From Hydrolagus colliei (taxonomy: Eukaryota): a DNA stretch of 64,000 nucleotides. The notes below the pieces were generated by a model. The model searched no databases. It saw only the letters and a program-made list of their open reading frames with translations, and had not been told where the DNA came from. Every line of letters starts with the position of its first letter. The stretch's first letter is position 1. Below are positions 1,766 to 61,477 of this stretch, piece after piece. The DNA lies in contig CM068757.1 of the NCBI GenBank assembly GCA_035084275.1, forward strand, positions 5,766,001 through 5,830,000. Direction: 5' to 3'. The translations under genes and the position numbers were made by a program.

Positions 1766-2079
1766 GTTCTTTAGCTCAGTGGTTAGAGCAGTTCCCTTAC
1801 AAGTATGAGACCTGTGTTCGAATCCAAGCAGATCAGGGCGAAACCTTGGGCAGGTTTTCTTACCCCACCACCTAATAATAATCCCTCAAAAAAAACAATA
1901 ATAAAAAAATTGGTTATTTCAATCCATGACTGTTTGTGGGAAACTGCTGTGCGCAATTGGCTGTCGCATTTCACCCACAAATGTAGTCAATTCACTTTAC
2001 AATATATTCTGTGAAGTGCTTTGAGACGTCTAGAAGATGTGAAAAGTGCTTTATCAAATGCAAGGATTATTATTATTAT
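1766..2079 (+). mobile_element. Full-length tRNA-derived Deu-domain SINE (young chondrichthyan family)
   Basis: Box A (tagctcagtggttagagc), box B (gttcgaatcc), Deu core (tgtttgtggg..ctgctgtgcgcaattggctg), 3' stem-loop and (TTA)n tail; near-identical copies elsewhere in the window. Confidence 0.92.
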
Positions 2080-2535
2080 AGAGTTGCTGATTAACAAAGA
2101 ACTGCACTTCAGAAACGTCATGCAACATCACGTCTAATGGACGAGTGAGAGCGACATCCGCGACAAAGTCTCAGCCAGTTCCAAAACTCCTGTGAGATTA
2201 AAAAATTTCCATAAATTGACAACTCTCCCAAACTCCAATGCAAACTGAGAACAGATAAGGGGGAATCGGTTCACAATTCTACGCGTTAAGTCTTCATCAT
2301 CAAATAAGAAAGCAAAATAAAGGAAACCCAGGCGATGGACAGCAGATCGATCAGAGCCTGAAACAGAAAGAAAAAAACACCACCCATTTGATTGCGACCT
2401 TTGTCAGAACGGGAAGCGTGGAGATGACATTTCACAGCTGAATACATTTTCAGACAGGAGCATATTGACCTGCCATGAATTTCCAGCCATTCCCTGATTT
2501 TATTTCGGATTTGCAGCATTCATCGGGCAATACCG

Positions 2536-2585: not shown

Positions 2586-4365
2586 TACGTTTTCCCTGTG
2601 TCCTTTTTTTTCCAACAAGGGGGAGCGAAAAGCTCAAAAAGACAGACAGCCCCCCCAAAAAATGCTAGTTACACCCGAGGTGGTTTGGTTCATGTGTAAA
2701 TCACCAAATAATCAACTCGGTCTGAGGCAAACACAAGCAACGAACTCATGAACCCGTGACCTGAGGGGAAAGGTCAGAGAGTTGCCAGCTCAGCAGTTAT
2801 CTAGCCCTTCACATCACCCGCAGCTTCCTTGAAATATATGAAAGTCTTCAACGCTGTCACAACCATCCATGAAAACCAGGTCTGATGTCTCAGCTGACTC
2901 TCTTCTCCACCCCCATTCATTGTGCATTTCATAAAGAGCAAAGCGTCAAGTAAACAAGTAGATCAATTTTACCTTATGAACATCTTTGTATGAGCTACTG
3001 AACTTCTGACTTATTTCCCAGCCTAATCACTTTGTTAGACTCGGGCAAAACAGGATCCAGGTTTGCCGTTTACATTAAAAGACTGCCTGCAGACAGAATC
3101 CAGGTCGCTGTACCGCAATATAACAGGATTAAAGAAGCTGGCAGGTAGCAGAATATAAAATCAGTCTTCCCTTCGCTATAAACATGCACTTGCAACAAGC
3201 TATCGACTAAATGCGGCATTTGTTAAAAGCATTGGCATTCACAAGTGCACCAGGAGAATCTCCGCACAATTTCAGGCTGTCATTCAACGCAGTGTAAAAC
3301 CGTCTGATTGCAGCTAAGACTAACCGTGAGGGAAGCCATGTTGTGGCAGAAACATTGGTTGAATTTAAGAAAAGAAATTTGAGAAAAGAAAAGAAAAATT
3401 ATCAGACATACATTGGAGGGAGGGAGAAGGGACGTGGAAGAGCATTGAGCTCCGCAAATTGTGTGCACATGACTTTGCAGCAGTCACATTGCACTGATTT
3501 ATGTTGAGTTTACCTTGCCCTGCACTGGCAATAGCTGGCTGGTAGAGGCGAAAGTCATCATGAGTAACAGTGAGTACCAGCCGATTTCGTATAACTGCAC
3601 GTACACTATCAGACACGTGCAATGTGGAAGCACAGAGAGACAACGCAATTCACCTGACAAGTAAATAACAGTGGCAAGAGAAAGGCGTCTGACAATCAGA
3701 CTGTTTCCCATTCTCCTCTTAACTGTGCGCTTGTTTGGGTTCTATAAGATGGCAGTAGGAATTAAAATAAACACAATGGCAACAGTAAGAATTGTTGTCA
3801 GTCTTGCCATTTCATGTCACCTGAGTGCAGATAGTAAAGAAGAGTATTCGACAGCATTCGAGGCAGTACTAACTGCATACAAAATTAAGTATTGCTGATT
3901 CATTTGTGTATTCTGTCCCGTTTCATTTGTATTAACAAGATAACAGGTTACAAAAAGGGTCAAAACCTAGTTTTGCTTGGTTGACGTTTACCTGTTCCTT
4001 TGAAAGTGTACAGTGAGAATCCGTTATTACATTAAGTTGGCCAATAACTCACAAGTGACAAAGCAGTGAGTGAGTTATAGTTAGTGCCATGAATGGAATA
4101 TAAATCATACCCCGAGGGTCTTCTTAATGTATTCTGTTTATACCACACACCGAACGTTAACCCGCTGGAGAATTAGGGAAAGGTGTTTGGGTAGAGATAA
4201 CGCGGATGTATTTTTTTTGTGGTGCTCTAGATTCTTTAGTAGTTTCTTTCCACTAGGCTGGAGATATTAGCAAGTGCTAATCGGATGCTTTGCTGCACTT
4301 TTAGGATGGTATACATTGAGTAATCGCTTCAGATCCATTGGCAAAGGACAGCTCCAGTAATGAGA

Positions 4366-5530
4366 ATCAATCAATCAATCAAAACTTACATTTATATCAT
4401 GCCTTTCACGTCGAGAGGACGTCCCAAGGCGCTGTACAGTTAGGTAGGGACAAGAGCAGGGGGGGGGAGGGGTTGGGGCAGGACGAAGAAGAGTAGGAAA
4501 ATTGACTGTATATTTGTGGGCGAAACGCAGCAGCCAAATTGCGCACAGCAGTGTCCCACAAACAATCATGGAAGTGGGATTGAGGGAAATGGGGTGGAAA
4601 AGATGTCAAGGGGAGGGATCGGGGCAGGCAGAAGGAGAGCAGGAAAGCCGACTGTATACTTGTGGGCGAAACGCGGCAGCCAAATAGCGCACAGCAGTGT
4701 CCCATAAACAGTCGCAGAAATGGGGCCAGGGGAGAAAAGGGGAAAAGAGGGTAAGGGGGGAGAGGAAGGGAAAGGTGGTATAAAGCAAGGTCAGGGAGGA
4801 AGAGGGGGGGAGAAAGGGGGGCAAAGGAGAGAGGGAGGGAAAGGTAGGTGGGGGGAAAAAATCAGGGAGAAAGGGAGGCAAGAGGGAAGAGGGAGAGAAA
4901 GGGAAAAGGGGGAAGAGAAAGTAGGGAAAGGGAGTGACGGGAGAAGAAGGAAGGCCAAGGGGTTGGGGGGGGGGGAAATCAAACAATAACAACAATAAGC
5001 AACAAAATCAACAACAAAAGCAATAATGTTAACAATAAAAACAATAATCATCAACGACTAGCAACAGTCCAGCAGTCACTCCTTCTCCCCGCCGCCCGCC
5101 CAAACCATCTTCAAAACAGCGGGAAACAGGGCCCAGTGCGGCCTCAGGCCCAAAAGCCGACCGGCTCCTCAGCTGGTGTCCCCGGCGACTCGGTGACGGC
5201 CCTGGTACCTCGGACGCGGCGTCTCCGGCCGGTTCGCTCAGCAGCAGCCGCGGGCGCAGCTCGATCGCCATGCGGATCTCGCGTGACCCGAGATGATCCT
5301 TGGCTTGCAGCGCCAGACCGGGTGAAATGCCTCGCGGGGGAACCACCCGAAGACCTCGCTGTCGAGCGTGTTCACCACGCCCACCGACGATGAAAGTCCG
5401 TGTTCAGGCGGACCTGTCCCAGCTCCCCGCAGACGTGTGGTGTGTAGCTCTGCATCCTGTACAAGATGGTCCAAATCTCAGTAGCGGTTTCGGTGGCAGT
5501 TACGCCTAAACCTCCTCCGCCGCCGGAGAT
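4366..5530 (-). mobile_element. Composite non-autonomous retroelement: CpG-rich head, pyrimidine tract, duplicated Deu domain, L2-type tail
   Basis: On the minus strand: GC/CpG-rich head (5050-5530), TTG-rich linker (4980-5050), C/T-rich tract (4720-4975), two Deu cores (about 4650-4714 and 4503-4568), L2 hairpin tail (4381-4440) and (TGAT)n end (4366-4380). Confidence 0.65.
4720..4975. repeat. Polypurine (G/A) low-complexity tract
   Basis: Almost exclusively G and A on the + strand. Confidence 0.9.
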
Positions 5531-20430: not shown

Positions 20431-20645
20431 ACAACAACAACAACAATTTACATTTATATAGCACCTTTCACGTCGGGAGGACGTCCCAAGGCGCTAAACA
20501 AGAGGCGTGTGACCCGAGCTGGGAGGGGAGTGTTTGGGAAGGGGTGAAACATGAAGGGGAGGTAAAAGAGTTCGGGGTGAAACAAAAGGCACGATCGAAG
20601 AGGAAAGTCTTCAAATCGGCCTTGAAAGAGGAAAGGGAAGAGGCG
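20431..20645 (-). mobile_element. L2 3' end (ORF2 C-terminus, 3'UTR and tail)
   Basis: Minus-strand translation 'ASSLSSFKADLKTFLF' resembles the L2 ORF2 C-terminal motif; hairpin tail and (TTG)n follow. Confidence 0.85.
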
Positions 20646-20998
20646 AAACAACAAACTTGATATAGAATATACCGGTATAGAATATTGCCGCAAAGCTCTT
20701 GGTTACTTGGAAGCTCCACGATAGATACTCGCCACAAAAGAATATGTGACTAAAAGAAGCTTAGTGCCATGCTAAACACAGTGCTTTAGAAAATGTCAAA
20801 CCCAGCTCATGCTGCACACAATGTATGGGAGAACCTATTACTGAAGGATAAGGAATATTAAAAGTTCACTGTATTTTAACAAGATCAGGAATTAGGCATA
20901 TTTGTAGAGCATAGTGTCCTAATCATATGATGTATGCCATTTACCCAGTCAGTTATTGCTTGCACATCAATAATAATTAAACCCAAGTTATTAACTTC

Positions 20999-39196: not shown

Positions 39197-39500
39197 GTGG
39201 AATCCTGTAGCTCAGTGGTTAGAGCACTCGCCTCGCAAGCGAGAGAACTTGGATTCGATTCCCAGCAGGGCAAAACCTTGGGCAAGTTTCCTTACTCCAC
39301 ACGCCTGGTAATAATCCCTAAAGAAAAAACAATAATAATTTGGTCACTCAATCCATGACTGTTTGTGGGACGCTGCTGTGTGCAATTGGCTGCCGTTACC
39401 CTGTAACATGTAGCGCAATTGGCTGCTCACAATTATACGGTCGATTCACTTTACAGTATACTCTGTGAAGCGCTTGGAGACATTTTGAAGACTTGAAAAG
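39197..39500 (+). mobile_element. tRNA-headed DeuSINE with a local duplication in the Deu core
   Basis: gtagctcagtggttagagcactcgcctcgcaagcgag head; gcaattggctgc occurs twice (39382-39426); tail truncated. Confidence 0.9.
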
Positions 39501-40863: not shown

Positions 40864-41858
40864 AATATTGTATCAAGAACCATAACTGTTGCGTGAGACA
40901 AACCTGCAACATAATATACCTCAGGAGCCACTGTAGACCAAGTCGACAGCTCAGCTCTCGTTGGGAAACCGACCAGAATATTCTAAATACTGTACTAAAG
41001 ATTGCCAGAGAACAGGTTCAAGGATATAACGCACTTGTGGGGTTCAGAAGACAGTGACAAACTGCTCGAGCTTCGCTGTTATTCTCCTTTTACCTGCTGT
41101 GCACTGTTCGGGGATGTGTTTTTGGCAGCACGTTGCCTGGAGGTTTGCTATTGCTACAATTCAACTTTAAGTTCCGTGCTGACCGGATAAGCTGAATCCA
41201 GATTTTTTTATCCCCAATTTCTTAATTCACTCGAAAGATGAGTCCAAACAAAATGCAGCTTTGCTTTGCACAGCCCAAAGTTTCCCCTGCACTTTCTAAG
41301 AGGCGCTGGTGATCTCCACTGAGAGATTGCTGCTAGTGGAGGCCTGATGGACCAGCTGGCCTTTTTTCTTGACCAGCCTTCTGGCTGGTCTCTTTCACAA
41401 ATTCAATTTGTGTTGAGTTTTGGGCCACTTCTGCACCAAAATGTTTTTTTTTTTAAAAAGTGCCCTTTTAGCACTTCTCCCTTTTGACAGGCAAAGTTTT
41501 GCCCTTTAAGGCAAGCCTTTAGCCTTTATATATTCATACTCCCTTCCCATTTTGCTTGATTGAAAAGCATTGATAATAACGGCAATTGTTACCATTAGCA
41601 ATAACTCAGGGGGATGAAGCAATGCAGTTGTTATTTGGAGAGAAAACAATTGTGCAAAAATGCTGTCATGAATCTTAATCCCTTTGTTATATATCAGTGA
41701 AAGTCCTTATTATATCATTGAGTGTGACGTGATGATGCTTTTCAGTCATACTACATGTTTGGATCATGGGCAACGGTAAACTGGTTTCCACATTTGCATT
41801 TGTAACGTAATGTTACACGTATGCCAAGGACAACCGTGCATCTGAAGCAGACACACAC

Positions 41859-41945
41859 AGACAGATACTATCACACACACACAAAGACAGATACTATCAC
41901 ACACACACAAAGACAGATACTATCACACACACACACAGAAAGATA
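41859..41945. repeat. Minisatellite, 26-bp unit x3
   Basis: agacagatactatcacacacacacaa repeated at 41859, 41885 and 41911. Confidence 0.9.
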
Positions 41946-44589
41946 CACAGGCAAACACACAGTCATACATACCTAGGCATCCATACACACACACACATGA
42001 GTATAGATATATATCCTGGGTGCTCAGCAGGTACTATTAAGTAAGCAGTTTGGAATGTTCTCCCAACATGAAAGGCACAATATAAATGTAAATTTGGAAT
42101 GTATTGTTCACACATACACCAATGTAAGGATTATTATTGGTACAGAACTCCCCCTGCTGACCCCATACAGATATGGCAGGGCCAATTTATTTCTATTCTC
42201 ACTCAAGATAGAAATATAAGACGATCGCACCGTGATTGCGATCACCAAACAGGTGGAAATTAAGTTAGTTTTATCTGGAAAATCACCTTGCTTCCAAAGT
42301 TACCTGCACCCACCCGCACGCACCCACTTATACACACAAACTATTAGGCAATCACACAGACAAGCAGACAGATTCATGCATGCACACACAGGCACAGACA
42401 AACACATAATCACAATCCGGACCTTGTGAACCCATCCCATCCTATTCTTTGGGACAACAGAAACTCCACATTACCACGCTGGTGCAATCGCATTCATCAG
42501 AATGAAATCACATTCATAAAATGGAATCAAGCCTTTCAACACTAAAGCATGTACTTTATCAGATTCTTTCTTTCTACCGGGGGTCAGCAAGAATCACTCC
42601 GCAGGCAAGGTTTTACATTACGTAACATGAAGAAAGTGACACAGGGACAAAGTACGACAGGATATCTTGCAGAACTGAAGCTGTGCATCTTCACATGCAG
42701 GACTCATGCCATTTGTACACGACTGTTTAAACCATCCGCGACGCTGAGCAAAATCAATACTCTTTCCTCACCAGCCTGGATCTCAGATACCAGCTGCTAC
42801 AGTAGATAAACAAATGAACCAGTTTACAATGGCCAAGTGTTAGCGTGGAAGAAAAGGCTGTGTACAGTTCACACTCGAGCGCGCTTAATTCATTCTATCA
42901 AGTTTCTCGTGGACAGGGGGAATAGATTAACTGTTTATGAAAGAACAAACAAGGTGCCCAATTCTGAGTATAACGCTCTCGAGACATCTGATATTCCACC
43001 AGTGGCATGCACGTAGGGACAGGAGAAAACTGGAACAAACATTATAATCAACATGACCGATAAATGTTCCTGCCATCTTGCTCCATGAGTTACAGGTGGG
43101 GAGACAGTGTTACGAACGCAGTTCCCAAAACTAACACAGGGTTTATGTGGCCCTCTTAGCTCTCTAAATAATCAAACTCGGGTTCAGAGAGTCAGTCCTA
43201 GATTAAATCCAGAGTCTTTTACAATTCAATAGACTTTTCATAATGAGCAGTACATAAAACCTCTTGTAAATCCTAAAAGATAGTTTCTTCTCTGTGGATT
43301 TAAAACGCACATCTTCCCATGGTGTTACTAGGGGAGTCGAATTCCGACAGAACTAAACAAGGGGACTGATTTTATGATTCGAACGGACTGATGAGGAGTT
43401 ACTCGATTAACAAGACAGACCTCTGGCTCGCACTGCGTTTTTGTGTGGGTACAAAATCACATCCTATTCTTAATGTTTAGAATGTTAAAGCTCTCGCTGT
43501 ACGCTCCGCAGGGTACCAGAGACTGACTGAATCTCTCCAATCCGCCCCTACTCGCACACAAATATAATAGGTAGATTGTGAAAGAGTTACCTTGGAAACC
43601 GGTTGACTCACGCTCGTTCCATCTGACTCTTATGGAGAAGTCACCGCTGAAGTCAAACAAACGCATTCTTAATATAGAATGGGACACGGAAACACAGGGG
43701 GGCTTTTGTTTCACTCTCAGTACAATGCTGATTTCCGAATGCCCTTTGAATCCACAAAAGTAATAACGTGCAATCGGCCTCTGGAAAGCGGGAAATGATT
43801 TCCGAGATGATCAGATGGATTTTTAAAAGCATTCAAGTCATTTCTTGAAAGCGAAATTGGTGCGTTTATCTGCAGGCCCCAAAATAATATTTCGGGGCTG
43901 AAAAGCAGCTGGTTATATGGGCCAATTTATATTCAGCACGATAACTTCCACAACGATTGTGTTTGCAAATACATTTAAGTCCACAAATATTCAATGATGA
44001 TAGCACAGCATCAAATCCACGGCTATGTTCTGATACATGTAAATTGTCCCCAGGTTTCAATTTTACTCCTCACGTAATCAGTTATAGTATTAGACATCTC
44101 AGCGAATAAAATCCTATTTAAGTAACACGCTGCCATAGACACTGCAACACCAGTCACCTCTATTGCCACTATCCAAAGTGCTCCACATAAACGTCTGTCT
44201 GTGCCCATGTGTGAAGCAATTTCCATTTGGGGCTTGCAGATAAAATACTGCTCTTTTCAAGCATGCTGCGTTTGCTTTCTCAATCACCACCTCCACCCCC
44301 ACCACCACTATCAACTTTATCAGTGGGAATATTGGCCAGTACACCGGGAGAAAGTCCCTTCTTTCTTCATGGGATCTGCAGGGTCCATTTCAACAGACAT
44401 ACTAGAGCTTGGTTTAACACCTGAGTCGAAGGAAGGCATCTCCAACAAAGTAATGTTACTTTTGATCTCCAATGCAGGGCTCCCCCATGACTTGGGACTT
44501 CAGAAATGCGTAATTCTTTGCGTGGACTGTTGGACTGACAAGGCTACTCATTACTTATTACCTTGTCCAGAAAGTGTAAACTGTTCAAA

Positions 44590-44800
44590 AACAACAACAA
44601 AATAATGTTTGTGTAGCACCTTTCATGTTGGGAGGATGTCCCAAGTCGATGGATAATCAATGTTTTGGACCCGAGCTGGGATCAGGAAGGGTGCAGGGCA
44701 GTGGGGAGAAGGAGGGTGGTCGAAGGTAAGGTGGAAAAGGAGGTGGTTTTCAGTTGGGTCTTGAAGGAGGCAAGGGAGAAAGTGAGGGACTGCGGGATGG
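44590..44800 (-). mobile_element. L2 3' end
   Basis: Reversed hairpin tail plus 'ttttcag.tgggtcttgaaggagg', the C-terminal ORF2 region seen in other L2 copies. Confidence 0.75.
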
Positions 44801-45189
44801 ACAAACATTGAAATTTATCTAACAGAACAAGACAAGCTATTTGAAGCCATGTCCCCTCTCATTGTTTGCCGCCAGAAGAACGGGAAACATCAAACAAGAC
44901 TAGATTTATGTGTATGTATATCGCTGCTCAACAATTTGTAATTAGCAATTAATCTTATCGCAAACAAAGCAATTATATGAAGCAAATCAAACACCAAGAC
45001 TCAGGTTTGACTCTGCTTTTTGAGCCAGGGAAATATGTAGATCAGTTTTCTTCACGTCAAAGGGCATTCAGCTGATTGTGATGGATAGTGACCCAAAACT
45101 CTAGTCCAGTTTTTCAATCAGCCTGATACTGTGCCTTGCCGACCACTTCTGACTCAGCTTTGATTCTCTGAAAGCGCACAGCGCAACAC

Positions 45190-46823: not shown

Positions 46824-47095
46824 AACAACAACAACAGCAAAATTACACTTGTATAGCGCCTTTCACATCAGGAAGACGTCCCAAGGTGCTGGACAGTTAC
46901 TGCTTCAGACCCGATCTTAGGAGGTTGGGGGTAGAGGGCGGGAACGGGGGGCTTAGGAGGTGCTGATGGTCCATTGAAGAGGAGAGTCTTGAGGCGGGAC
47001 TTGAAGGAGGCTGGGGAGGAGGCGAGGCAGAGGGATTGCGGGATGGAGTTCCAGAGGTTGGGAGCAGAGTGGCTGAAGGCTCGCCCGCCAATGGT
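46824..47095 (-). mobile_element. L2 3' end
   Basis: Translation 'TIGGRAFSHSAPNLWNSIPQSLCLASSPASFKSRLKTLLF' is a typical L2 ORF2 C-terminus; hairpin tail and (TTG)n follow. Confidence 0.93.
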
Positions 47096-47654
47096 ACAAT
47101 GGTACAAAAATATTGCCACTGAAACAAAGTTAGCTTTATTGTAGCAAACTGAGCTGGACTAAACTTGGAGCCAGAAGTAACCAGAACACAAAACACATCA
47201 CCATCCTCGGCACACCATAGTCTTGCTTTGGGGCAGCTTGACATCCATCAAAGGGGAAGATTTATTTATGCCTGCTAACTCAAATGTTAGCTGTGATGCA
47301 AGTATTCATTCTTAAGTGCACAGACAGGTCCACATCGATCATTTCAGCTCTTTGATGCAAAGAATGCTGAGCCTCGATATTTGAATAGATCTTGCAAATC
47401 CGAGTTCACAAATAACGTCGGGAGTTTAATAAAAGCACAGCTTTTCCTTCTTTTCATTCAGTGGCTGAAAATTAAACCCGAGTTAAGAGACCAAGCGTAT
47501 TTATTTGCCAGCTGGTGCCTTTGTATTTAAGGTCAAAGCCGGTGCAACATTCAAATGGAAGATAATAATTGCATGCAATATGTGTCACCTCCTGACAACC
47601 GACAGGTGAACACAAAATACAATGCACCCACCGACCTGGCATTTGCTCTACTTG

Positions 47655-57457: not shown

Positions 57458-57668
57458 ATAATAATAATAAACCGTCCAAAAAAACTACAATAATAAAATT
57501 GGTCATTTCAATCCACAACTGTTTGTGGGACACTGCTGTGCGCAATTGGCTGCCGCGATTCGCCCACAAATATATAGTAAATTCACTTTACAGTATATTC
57601 TGTGAAGCGCTTTGGGACGTCGATAAGATGTGAAAAGCGCTATATCAAATGCAAGAATTATTATTATT
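57458..57668 (+). mobile_element. 5'-truncated young DeuSINE
   Basis: Near-consensus Deu core and tail (agcgctttgggacgtcgataagatgtgaaaagcgct...caagaattattattatt). Confidence 0.92.
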
Positions 57669-57926
57669 GTCTTTGATATAAAAGTTTTTAAGATACAAGG
57701 TCAACAATATTCATACCTGACAGCTCACAAAGGCTACGTCAAGAGCAAAGCAGATGCAGCTTCACTTGTTCAGTATATCAGTTATAATATTAATCAGCAT
57801 CAAGTCTCAAGGAGAATCCTTCTTTGCACTCAACGATAACCCTGAGGTCTAATGTGTAAGGTGGTCTTCAACTGATGTGCAAAATATGCAGTTTGGGTTT
57901 AATCAAGGGTCACGACTCCATTCGTG

Positions 57927-60113: not shown

Positions 60114-60611
60114 TAAGCATTATTCCGTTCAATTTATATAATTAATATTCAATTTATACAGTCGCCGCTTCAAGTTTTGCCAATTCCTCTTTGTGTCTCT
60201 TTGAACCAATCGGATGCATTGTGATGTTTCCTCAGTATTGAAAACCTATTGTGGATTCCTTAACATCCCGAACAGCTTTTCAATGATTACATAGCCGTAG
60301 ACATTAACAAATTTGCTAAGGTACACAAATCACAGTGAGAGATTGGCTCAAAATATATGGGAGTAGCTGTGACAGCATAGCAGGTATTAAACCAAATTCA
60401 CTGTGGTTTATAGCTTACAGTCAATGGGCAAAAAAGACATTTACAGAAGGAATCAGTTTGGCTTAGTTTCTAAGCAGGTCCACTCCTTCATAATTGGCAT
60501 GATCAGGTATTTACATCTAATTTGCAACAGAATTTAAAACGGTCTCTGAATCCCAAACAGGGAAATCACTAAGAAATGCGGCACATTGACCAACTGTAGA
60601 TAAAACTGCAC

Positions 60612-61477
60612 GAAAAAAACCCTGATCGCTCTAATCTCTCACACTACCATCCCATCTCCAATCTTCCTTGCCACAGTCCTGGAATGCATTATTGCAGGTC
60701 AACTTCAGTCACACCCTCTCCCTCCAATCCCTCCTCGAGCCCCTGAAGTCTGGTTTTGCGCTGTCCACAGCGCAGAGACAGCGCTTGTCAAAGTCACAAA
60801 CAACCATCTCCCTGTCTGTGACCAGGGCTCCCTCTGCATCATTGTTCCCCTGGATCGTTCTGCGGCGTCCAGTTCTACCTCCAGCTGTCCTCCACCACAT
60901 TGCCTGCCTCCGATCGTACCTTACCCCAAAAGCAGCCGAAACCCTTGTGCGTGTGTTTGTCACATCCCGTTTGGCTTACTTCAATGCACTCCTCGCCAGC
61001 TCCACCATTCAAAAAACCCAGCTGCCTGCATAAGACCCAGATAAAACTCCCACATCTCACCATTTCTGGCCAGGCTCTACTGGCTCCCCATCACCAAACG
61101 GATCGAATTCAAGATCCTCACAGTTGTGTTCAAATCCATTCACTCCCTGGCACTTCCCTACCTCTACGATCTCCTCACTCCCAAGTGCACCTCCCAGCCC
61201 CTCCGCTCAACTAGCACCAGCCACCTGCTCATCCCTTGCACCTTCCTTCCCACCATCGACAGTCAACCCAATACTCTGGAACTCTCCCTCAATCCCTCTT
61301 CCTTGACCACTCTCTCCCCTCTTTCAAGTCCCGACTGCAAACTTTCCTGTTCGACTGTACTTAGGGCCATCTCCCCCCAACCCCCTCCCCCTGACTTGAA
61401 GTCAGTCGCCGGCACTTTTAAGCAGTCTGAGACAATACACTGTGTGGAGGGCGCTTTATAAGCGCAAATTGTTGTTG
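60612..61477 (+). mobile_element. L2 LINE ORF2 remnant with the RT core deleted
   Basis: Frameshifted motifs 'HYHPISNLP', 'SLLEPLKSGF..HSAETALVKVTN...IVPLD', then a jump to 'HIACLRSYLTPKAAETLVRVFVTSRLAYFNALLA' and 'WLPITKRIEFKILTVVFKSIHSLALPYL'; degenerate tail at the end. Confidence 0.92.

Follow-up and report, generated by a model that had tools for sequence, protein, structure and literature searches.

Structure of the Element

On the minus strand of the window, i.e., the whole stretch of 64,000 nucleotides analyzed here, lies a 1.2-kb element whose modules are found at the positions given for them in the original prediction. The CpG-rich head described there is borne out: positions 5076-5527 contain 48 CpG dinucleotides, with an observed/expected ratio (o/e) of 1.02 and a GC content of 65%, compared with 0.51 and 42% for the 64-kb window as a whole. 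The statement that this head lacks a tRNA is likewise in agreement with our results, as ARAGORN identified a tRNA in none of ten family loci and Rfam yielded no family near threshold and two weak matches, neither of them within the head proper. The tandem-repeat listing showed no array in the head, and Pfam searches with 75 of the window's 84 long frames returned no gene. Elsewhere in the window, a 26-nt tandem repeat is present in 3.7 copies (41846-41961).

All features of the element are read on the minus strand, from 5′ to 3′, and three structural stages of its family, termed A, B and C and described below, serve as reference. The element opens with a leader (5460..5524) of (GGC)n and ACCGC repeats, a remnant of the family terminus AAGATGGCGGC whose first 5 nt are gone, and homology to the family starts at 5524. 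There follow a region assigned below to a decayed H2B variant coding region (5171..5459), which extends from an RRKRR-QSY stretch to KYTS and is frameshifted and eroded by A-to-G changes, as judged by DNA alignment and tree, and two remnants of RUNDC1 coding sequence. The first remnant (5119..5170, approximately residues 28-51) directly abuts the H2B part and was aligned to stage A and B copies, while the second (5067..5118, approximately residues 87-105) lies 3′ of a family-wide deletion of ~110 nt and is 81% identical over 32 nt to the stage A copy L083. The (TTG)n-rich linker (4980..5066), longer than in stages A and B, and the pyrimidine tract (~4715..4979), already present in stage A and later, were both part of the original prediction. 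So was a tandem unit of 146 bp, and this duplication is real: with ggggcagg at 4475 and 4621, its members are 79% identical over 150 nt and 92% identical over a 64-nt core. The upstream member contains the first copy of a SINE-derived block (4650..4713, 92% to copy 2), and the downstream member contains the second, 73-nt copy (4500..4572), which had been labelled a Deu core and, across all 73 nt, is up to 89% identical to the 3′ body of tRNA-headed SINEs in the window. A C-rich spacer (4442..4499), by eye similar to the short C-rich 3′UTR of a LINE, leads to the hairpin tail and (TGAT)n end that had also been foreseen, namely a LINE-type 3′ tail with a two-stem hairpin (4385..4441), the outer stem of which is damaged in the window copy, and a (TGAT)n terminal repeat typical of stage C (4365..4384).

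The Head Stems From Host Genes

Translated copies of the family read like H2B. PDB H2B chains were matched by copies L017 (E 1.6e-15) and L008 (E ~3e-9), and the Pfam family Histone was found in one of eight copy frames with an E-value of 1.5e-4, which is under the curated cut-off. In a parent search that covered 20 fetched histone loci, the best intact host gene was an H2B variant gene (G000:C194:23475-23918) with 77.7% identity to the family majority sequence, while other H2B genes reached about 70-72%. The window copy itself aligned to this variant gene with 69.7% identity over 277 nt (5459-5188, E 3e-26); its alignment with canonical H2B extends across no more than 36 nt. A tree with 54 rows, for which the bootstrap was not fully settled, gave a support of 100/99 to the branch parting the H2B variant and 46 element copies from seven other H2B genes. 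The front of the window copy's head is the decayed coding region of an H2B variant gene of the source genome. By eye, the leader at 5460..5524 may loosely resemble the N-tail of the variant. A protein search using the decayed H2B frame gave no match, none of the window's own three head frames was recognized by Pfam and tblastn of the parent H2B against the window returned nothing at E 1; the H2B signal thus sits at the DNA level and in sister copies.

The parent H2B variant gene features a TATA box and an AATAAA signal and has no stem-loop directly after the stop codon. Its product has a Ser/Gly/Arg-rich N-tail, and the exact protein is absent from the protein collection searched. At least four divergent H2B variant genes reside on the small contig C194 (L066, G000:C194:20500-25500; L067; L068). 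Tandem arrays of canonical histone genes with a spacing of ~12-13 kb are located on G000:C45 and at C1:155.35-155.46 Mb; the N-tail of their canonical H2B is unlike the usual vertebrate type.

The second component of the head became apparent from five "histone" loci on contig C28, which represent older copies of the element in which H2B is followed by a more extended stretch, and this stretch matches a RUN-domain protein at 59%. In addition, copies free of H2B exist (seven matches, two of them being duplicates). These stage A copies comprise ~80-100 nt upstream of an ATG, a reading frame and the same linker and tract as the family, and complete representatives also carry block and tail. Their frame is 63% identical over amino acids 1-110 to RUN domain-containing protein 1 from Callorhinchus milii. 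We presume that the ~80-100 nt ahead of the ATG correspond to the RUNDC1 5′UTR, a status that has to be inferred because the parent gene was not found in the assembly: all 33 matches fall within amino acids 1-115, and the lack of any RUNDC1 sequence past amino acid 115 implies that the parent gene is either missing from the assembly or lost. None of the six loose ends listed, out of 59, points toward a RUNDC1 gene. The claim that the head derives from a LINE-type 5′UTR and promoter is accordingly not upheld, the head being host coding sequence from an H2B variant and RUNDC1.

A Dispersed Family

A search of the 1.0-Gb source genome with the head resulted in at least 798 first-look candidates, a number that includes a younger, UQCC2-headed branch; the 40 candidates that were scored are 74-82% identical, self excluded. 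With a 222-nt probe from the 5′ half of the head, at least 129 candidates were obtained. We examined 42 loci, 30 from the head search and 12 new ones from the 222-nt probe, among them the near-identical duplicates L005 and L006. Head, pyrimidine tract, SINE block and tail occur in this order in 33 of the 42 loci, SINE block plus tail in 35, and two blocks were detected in 13; since the loci are the top matches to the head, the sample is biased toward long copies. Together with the number of candidates, this collinearity establishes the postulated dispersed composite and speaks against a single-copy head. The summed contig depth over a 40-nt RUNDC1 remnant amounts to 65,000-88,000, compared with ~45-50 for single contigs, and, though no copy number, hints at more than 1,000 copies.

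Six interrupted loci were displayed, several of which carry later insertions. At locus L007, a CR1-like open reading frame is found behind the head and the element picks up again ~2.1 kb further on. Going by this arrangement, the CR1-like frame is a later insertion into the linker, and the head thus fronts no LINE in the 42-locus sample, which answers in the negative whether it also precedes full-length L2 elements. A fixed 3′ end combined with variable 5′ truncation, a mark of non-LTR retroposition, is seen in the family. Target-site duplications were not obvious by eye in nine copies, for eight of which both ends were displayed; L2 often leaves none.

The 5′ End as a Putative Promoter

A shared 5′ end had been proposed as a check on the family and was indeed observed. 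Either AAGATGGCGGC or AAAATGGCGGC forms the start of full-length C copies, the flanks of which are unrelated, a start at the motif being found in 12 of 50 loci with a strict filter and in 10 of 30 with a looser one. B and early C copies open with the same AAAATGGCGGC as A, and in stage A a AATGGCGG motif is situated ~20 nt inside the shared 5′ stretch. We take the 5′ motif AAGATGGCGGC, which is lost from the terminus of the window copy, to be a match to the YY1 motif. The YY1-like site CCATCTT named in the original prediction exists at 5463-5469 and is private to the window copy (one of 30 aligned copies), i.e., the named site is not that of the family, and the prediction of a YY1-like motif near the 5′ end stands in that AAGATGGCGGC is conserved at the very 5′ end. 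According to the cited text of PMC8384218, TATA-less human transcription starts are enriched in YY1 motifs immediately downstream. We consider it somewhat more likely than not that the AAGATGGCGGC motif acts as a promoter.

Stages of Assembly

Three structural stages and the younger UQCC2-headed branch are observed. Stage A has the presumed RUNDC1 5′UTR, the ATG and codons 1-110 as its head. In stage B, H2B coding sequence stands in place of RUNDC1 codons 1-27. Stage C, the window's family, would have arisen through the ~110-nt deletion in RUNDC1, a longer linker, erosion of H2B, amplification and duplication of the block. The order from A via B to C is deduced from the collinearity of A with RUNDC1 from Met1 onward and from the rising share of G at A-to-G sites: of 25 such sites, G occupies three to five in stage B, a number that rises to 15-17 among basal C copies and reaches as many as 25 among the other C copies. 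A shared derived deletion and shared changes furthermore indicate that the copies descend from the element's own masters and not from repeated copying of mRNA.

Most B matches, approximately 20 copies, belong to a segmental-duplication cluster at G000:C28:8.41-8.70 Mb (L072-L076, L175-L178), which consists of blocks of 1-2.6 kb that are 81-93% identical. Pfam labels these stage B copies histones. The stage A copies L143 and L145, which reside on different contigs, have ~135 nt in common upstream of the shared 5′ stretch, which reflects either an extended 5′ form or an ancient duplication. The window copy falls within a clade of 14 (support 95/85), of which 12 were scored as two-block copies.

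A search with the UQCC2 Pfam family returned 150 matches from 283 candidates. Of 25 UQCC2 loci, 24 join the C body in the middle of H2B, and the 25th (L181, G000:C29:7649803-7649934) comprises UQCC2 exon 1 with a splice donor and is probably exon 1 of the real UQCC2 gene. The UQCC2 piece in the element ends at the exon 1 donor of the gene; the acceptor in the C consensus is not canonical. With a median pairwise identity of 96.6%, vs. 85.9% in C (12 copies each), the UQCC2-headed branch is young and is placed by sequence as a sister to the window's clade, not as its descendant. Its members L182-L205 carry a further GC-rich piece of ~180 nt and an AT-rich stretch upstream of UQCC2, and L200 and L204 contain an expanded 12-nt repeat at the UQCC2 junction.

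SINE Block, Tail, and Partner LINE

The 73-nt block has 17 other matches, located at the 3′ end of tRNA-headed SINEs in the window and up to 89% identical over the full length. Copies and 3′ fragments of these SINEs, which resemble CmiSINE, occur at window positions 1780-2080, 39210-39500 and 57460-57670, among others, and their middle part is presumably CORE-like. An abundant LINE carries the same hairpin tail behind the end of its open reading frame in 19 of 25 copies, as expected from the claim that element and LINE share their tail, and one tail-sharing LINE copy has an RVT_1 match (E 9.5e-10). From ORF2 motifs, we assume that this LINE belongs to the L2 clade. Within the window, the shared hairpin tail also accompanies the ORF2 ends of 5′-truncated LINEs at 60604-61477, 46827-47100, 44590-44820 and 20432-20660. 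According to the cited part of PMC5499810, CmiSINE and SacSINE1-CM have a 3′ end of ~160 nt in common that includes the L2-2_CM tail, cross-species Deu matches are placed further 5′ (SacSINE1 124-258) and the hairpin tail homologous to that of the local SINE is tied to L2-2_CM. The partner LINE is likely of L2 type, an assignment resting on the ORF2 motifs and, for the sister tail, on PMC5499810. The search with LINE protein sequence gave 145,114 candidates genome-wide. No intact autonomous partner LINE was recovered. A LINE with tract and block in its 3′UTR was not seen in the 14 loci viewed out of 30. The pyrimidine-rich 3′UTR of the H2B gene, considered as a source of the tract, gave no alignment.

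Among complete C copies (n = 35), 22 keep the LINE tail; in 13, a switch to the SINE-type hairpin, which ends in (TTA)n, has taken place. The (TGAT)n end marks stage C, with (TTG)n forming the terminus in stages A and B. Across ten tails, 90.8% of cells conform to the pairing of the hairpin and one pair is changed on both sides; covariation in these ten tails does not exceed the shuffle control, and the tail hairpin of the window copy folds no better than shuffles (z -0.43).

Age, Coding Constraint, and A-to-G Bias

C copies differ from their majority sequence by a median of 10.0% (29 copies) and the window copy by 14.2%. CpG transitions in the C family amount to 16.9%, compared with 3.7% elsewhere, and CpG decay in the window copy stands at 12.8% vs. 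the median of 16.9%. The window copy is therefore an old, decayed copy, and the notion of a young element with intact CpG has to be abandoned. With 31 CpG in the parent H2B gene and 35 in the majority sequence (~290 nt), the CpG richness of the element is inherited from GC-rich coding exons. These values also bear on the model put forward in the original prediction, a young bipartite L2 derivative with a LINE 5′UTR promoter as its head. Such a derivative would account for the tail shared with the LINE, the missing tRNA head and the YY1-like 5′ motif. It is at odds with the divergence and CpG transitions just given, with the H2B and RUNDC1 origin of the head and with the finding that the head leads a LINE open reading frame in none of the 42 loci; moreover, the cited part of PMC5786205 lists bipartite elements for RTE, Ingi, Vingi and R2 only. 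We consider this model hardly credible.

Changes from the parent gene are distributed over the three codon positions as 17/22/13, which indicates that no protein was conserved. Some copies do hold long open frames across the histone fold and, in one copy on C28, the H2B frame is almost complete, as would be expected had the element encoded a functional histone-like or fusion protein that aided its spread. We regard this as very improbable, because changes are not concentrated at third positions, the consensus is frameshifted with its 5′ ATG reaching a stop within approximately ten codons, and the single Pfam Histone match among eight frames lies under the curated cut-off.

Where parent and B agree, A>G changes were found in C at 21 of 59 sites and T>C changes at three of 43 (Fisher p 8e-4), while a host-gene control branch showed 2/54 and 2/40, respectively. 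Both in the RUNDC1 part (4/20 vs. 2/15, p 0.68) and in block and tail (1/29 vs. 0/45), the bias lacked significance; in the pyrimidine tract, the numbers were 8/18 for A>G and 19/92 for T>C (p 0.04). Drift of the copies after insertion is mostly C>T and G>A. We give an even chance to the view that the bias was caused by ADAR acting on master RNAs. An origin at the DNA level or in reverse transcription, through transcription asymmetry, GC-biased conversion or enzyme error, is a serious possibility of somewhat lower standing. It would be in line with the lack of a significant ADAR neighbor preference at the A-to-G sites (p 0.77 and 0.27), with the gradual accumulation of A-to-G changes over the stages, with the likewise frequent T>C changes in the tract and with a fold test that gave no signal vs. 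controls, four of 30 random sets being equally stable. Pairing as a fold signal for ADAR was rejected, with values of 0.92 for changed sites, 0.89 for old G sites and 0.87 for random sets. On the other hand, GC-biased conversion is symmetric, so that an approximately five-fold strand asymmetry is not expected from it, the host-gene control branch is free of asymmetry and, once inserted, copies change mostly through C>T and G>A.

Proposed Origin and Mobilization

Taken as a whole, the window copy very probably represents a decayed non-autonomous retroposon composed of an H2B variant-RUNDC1 head, the tract, a doubled block and a LINE tail; Pol II is the likely source of its transcripts, starting at the YY1-like motif, and L2 the likely source of its copies. 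In the mechanism we propose, a 5′ transcript of RUNDC1 would have been joined to tract, SINE block and LINE tail. The cited text of PMC3747384 describes LINEs with stringent recognition of the 3′ tail, and the joining may have supplied a TATA-less Pol II start as well as the 3′ signal needed by such LINEs. The H2B variant coding region would then have taken over the front of RUNDC1. Transcription by Pol II would start from the 5′ YY1-like motif, and the L2 enzyme would copy the element upon recognizing its tail.

The junction between H2B and RUNDC1 fits GT-AG, yet also features 1-3 nt of microhomology. No B or C copy retains the H2B gene's own TATA box, 5′UTR or first ~35 codons. As B starts with the motif of A and without the 5′ end of the H2B gene, internal replacement is favored, and capture of H2B within an A element, through template switching or conversion, appears moderately likely. 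Capture by splicing is conceivable, albeit with a probability well below even. A broader role of splicing is implied by exon trapping, according to which heads were spliced from upstream host genes as in SVA_F1 and masters rely on nearby host promoters instead of an internal one. The exact fit of the junction to a GT donor where the H2B coding sequence ends and an AG in the A head, the UQCC2 piece that stops at the donor of exon 1 and the precedents in the cited parts of PMC6139936 and PMC12593883 are consistent with it. As an acceptor, though, the GAG is weak and lacks a pyrimidine tract, the 5′ portion of the H2B gene named above is found in no B or C copy, the AAAATGGCGGC start common to A, B and early C suggests that both flanks of H2B derive from A, and the 5′ ends are sharp. 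These observations render exon trapping unlikely, and we retain internal replacement within an A element as the preferred route. Only tentatively do we extend it to a chimaera lineage driven by L2 that would serially swap in the fronts of host genes (RUNDC1, H2B variant, UQCC2 and more) as Pol II promoters, keep the YY1 initiator and be recoded by ADAR in each generation.

Comparison With Known Elements

In the literature searched, Repbase and Dfam being outside its scope, no H2B- or RUNDC1-headed element was found. By its architecture, the element is neither an SVA nor a Pol III SINE nor a bipartite LINE. With the local CmiSINE-like tRNA-headed SINE it has the 73-nt block at the 3′ end in common, and with CmiSINE (SINE2-1_CM) and SacSINE1-CM of C. 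milii a homologous hairpin tail and tail switching, as far as these are described in the cited part of PMC5499810. Unlike CmiSINE, as characterized there, it is devoid of a tRNA head, A/B boxes and CORE, its block is duplicated, Pol II transcription is predicted and its length is 1.2 kb as opposed to ~0.35 kb. Non-tRNA host RNA combined with a LINE tail and SINE-like amplification are also features of snoRTE/PlatSINE1 from platypus and of bird SINEs with GC-rich heads; in the cited parts of PMC5499810 and PMC7245038, those heads are non-coding RNA or unassigned and the tails are of RTE type, whereas here protein-coding exons are linked to an L2-type tail. Processed pseudogenes generated by L1 are likewise dispersed dead copies of coding sequence (PMC3747384, in the text cited), yet the present copies end in a LINE tail instead of poly(A) and stem from the element's own masters and not from the mRNA of the parent.

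The closest principle is that of SVA_F1 with MAST2 exon 1 and chimpanzee pt_SVA_D6 with STK40 exon 1, which are likewise composite with a 5′ part replaced by a GC-rich piece of a host gene and, according to the cited parts of PMC6139936 and PMC12593883, resemble the present case in a single founding event followed by amplification. The host-gene head of SVA_F1 has been proven to be an internal promoter (PMC6139936, in the part cited). An amplifying subfamily whose head is a fixed piece of host gene sequence is also what we find here, so that the SVA-like composite nature of the element, as predicted, is upheld by its host-sequence head and the collinear modules in 33 of 42 loci. In contrast to SVA, the chimaera element lacks Alu, VNTR, SINE-R and poly(A) and ends in a LINE hairpin and a microsatellite. 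It differs from SVA_F1 in that two genes supplied the entire head as host coding sequence, in that heads are replaced serially, and in its host, a cartilaginous fish and not a primate, which the RUNDC1 and SINE resemblances mark as chimaera-like. We regard the family as an independent parallel to SVA_F1 beyond mammals.

The prevailing view is that SINE heads originate from small RNAs and that stringent LINEs such as L2 spare host mRNAs; in this family, protein-coding sequence serves as the head of an L2-tailed element that has spread in at least hundreds of copies. Owing to the surviving stages, head replacement, the exchange of tails and the A-to-G bias can each be tested in individual steps, and the serially head-swapping lineage, if true, would constitute a SINE-like family built entirely from parts of mRNAs, its assembly being recorded in a full fossil series. 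At the level of genome annotation, copies are at risk of being mistaken for paralogues of H2B, RUNDC1 or UQCC2 and for CpG islands.
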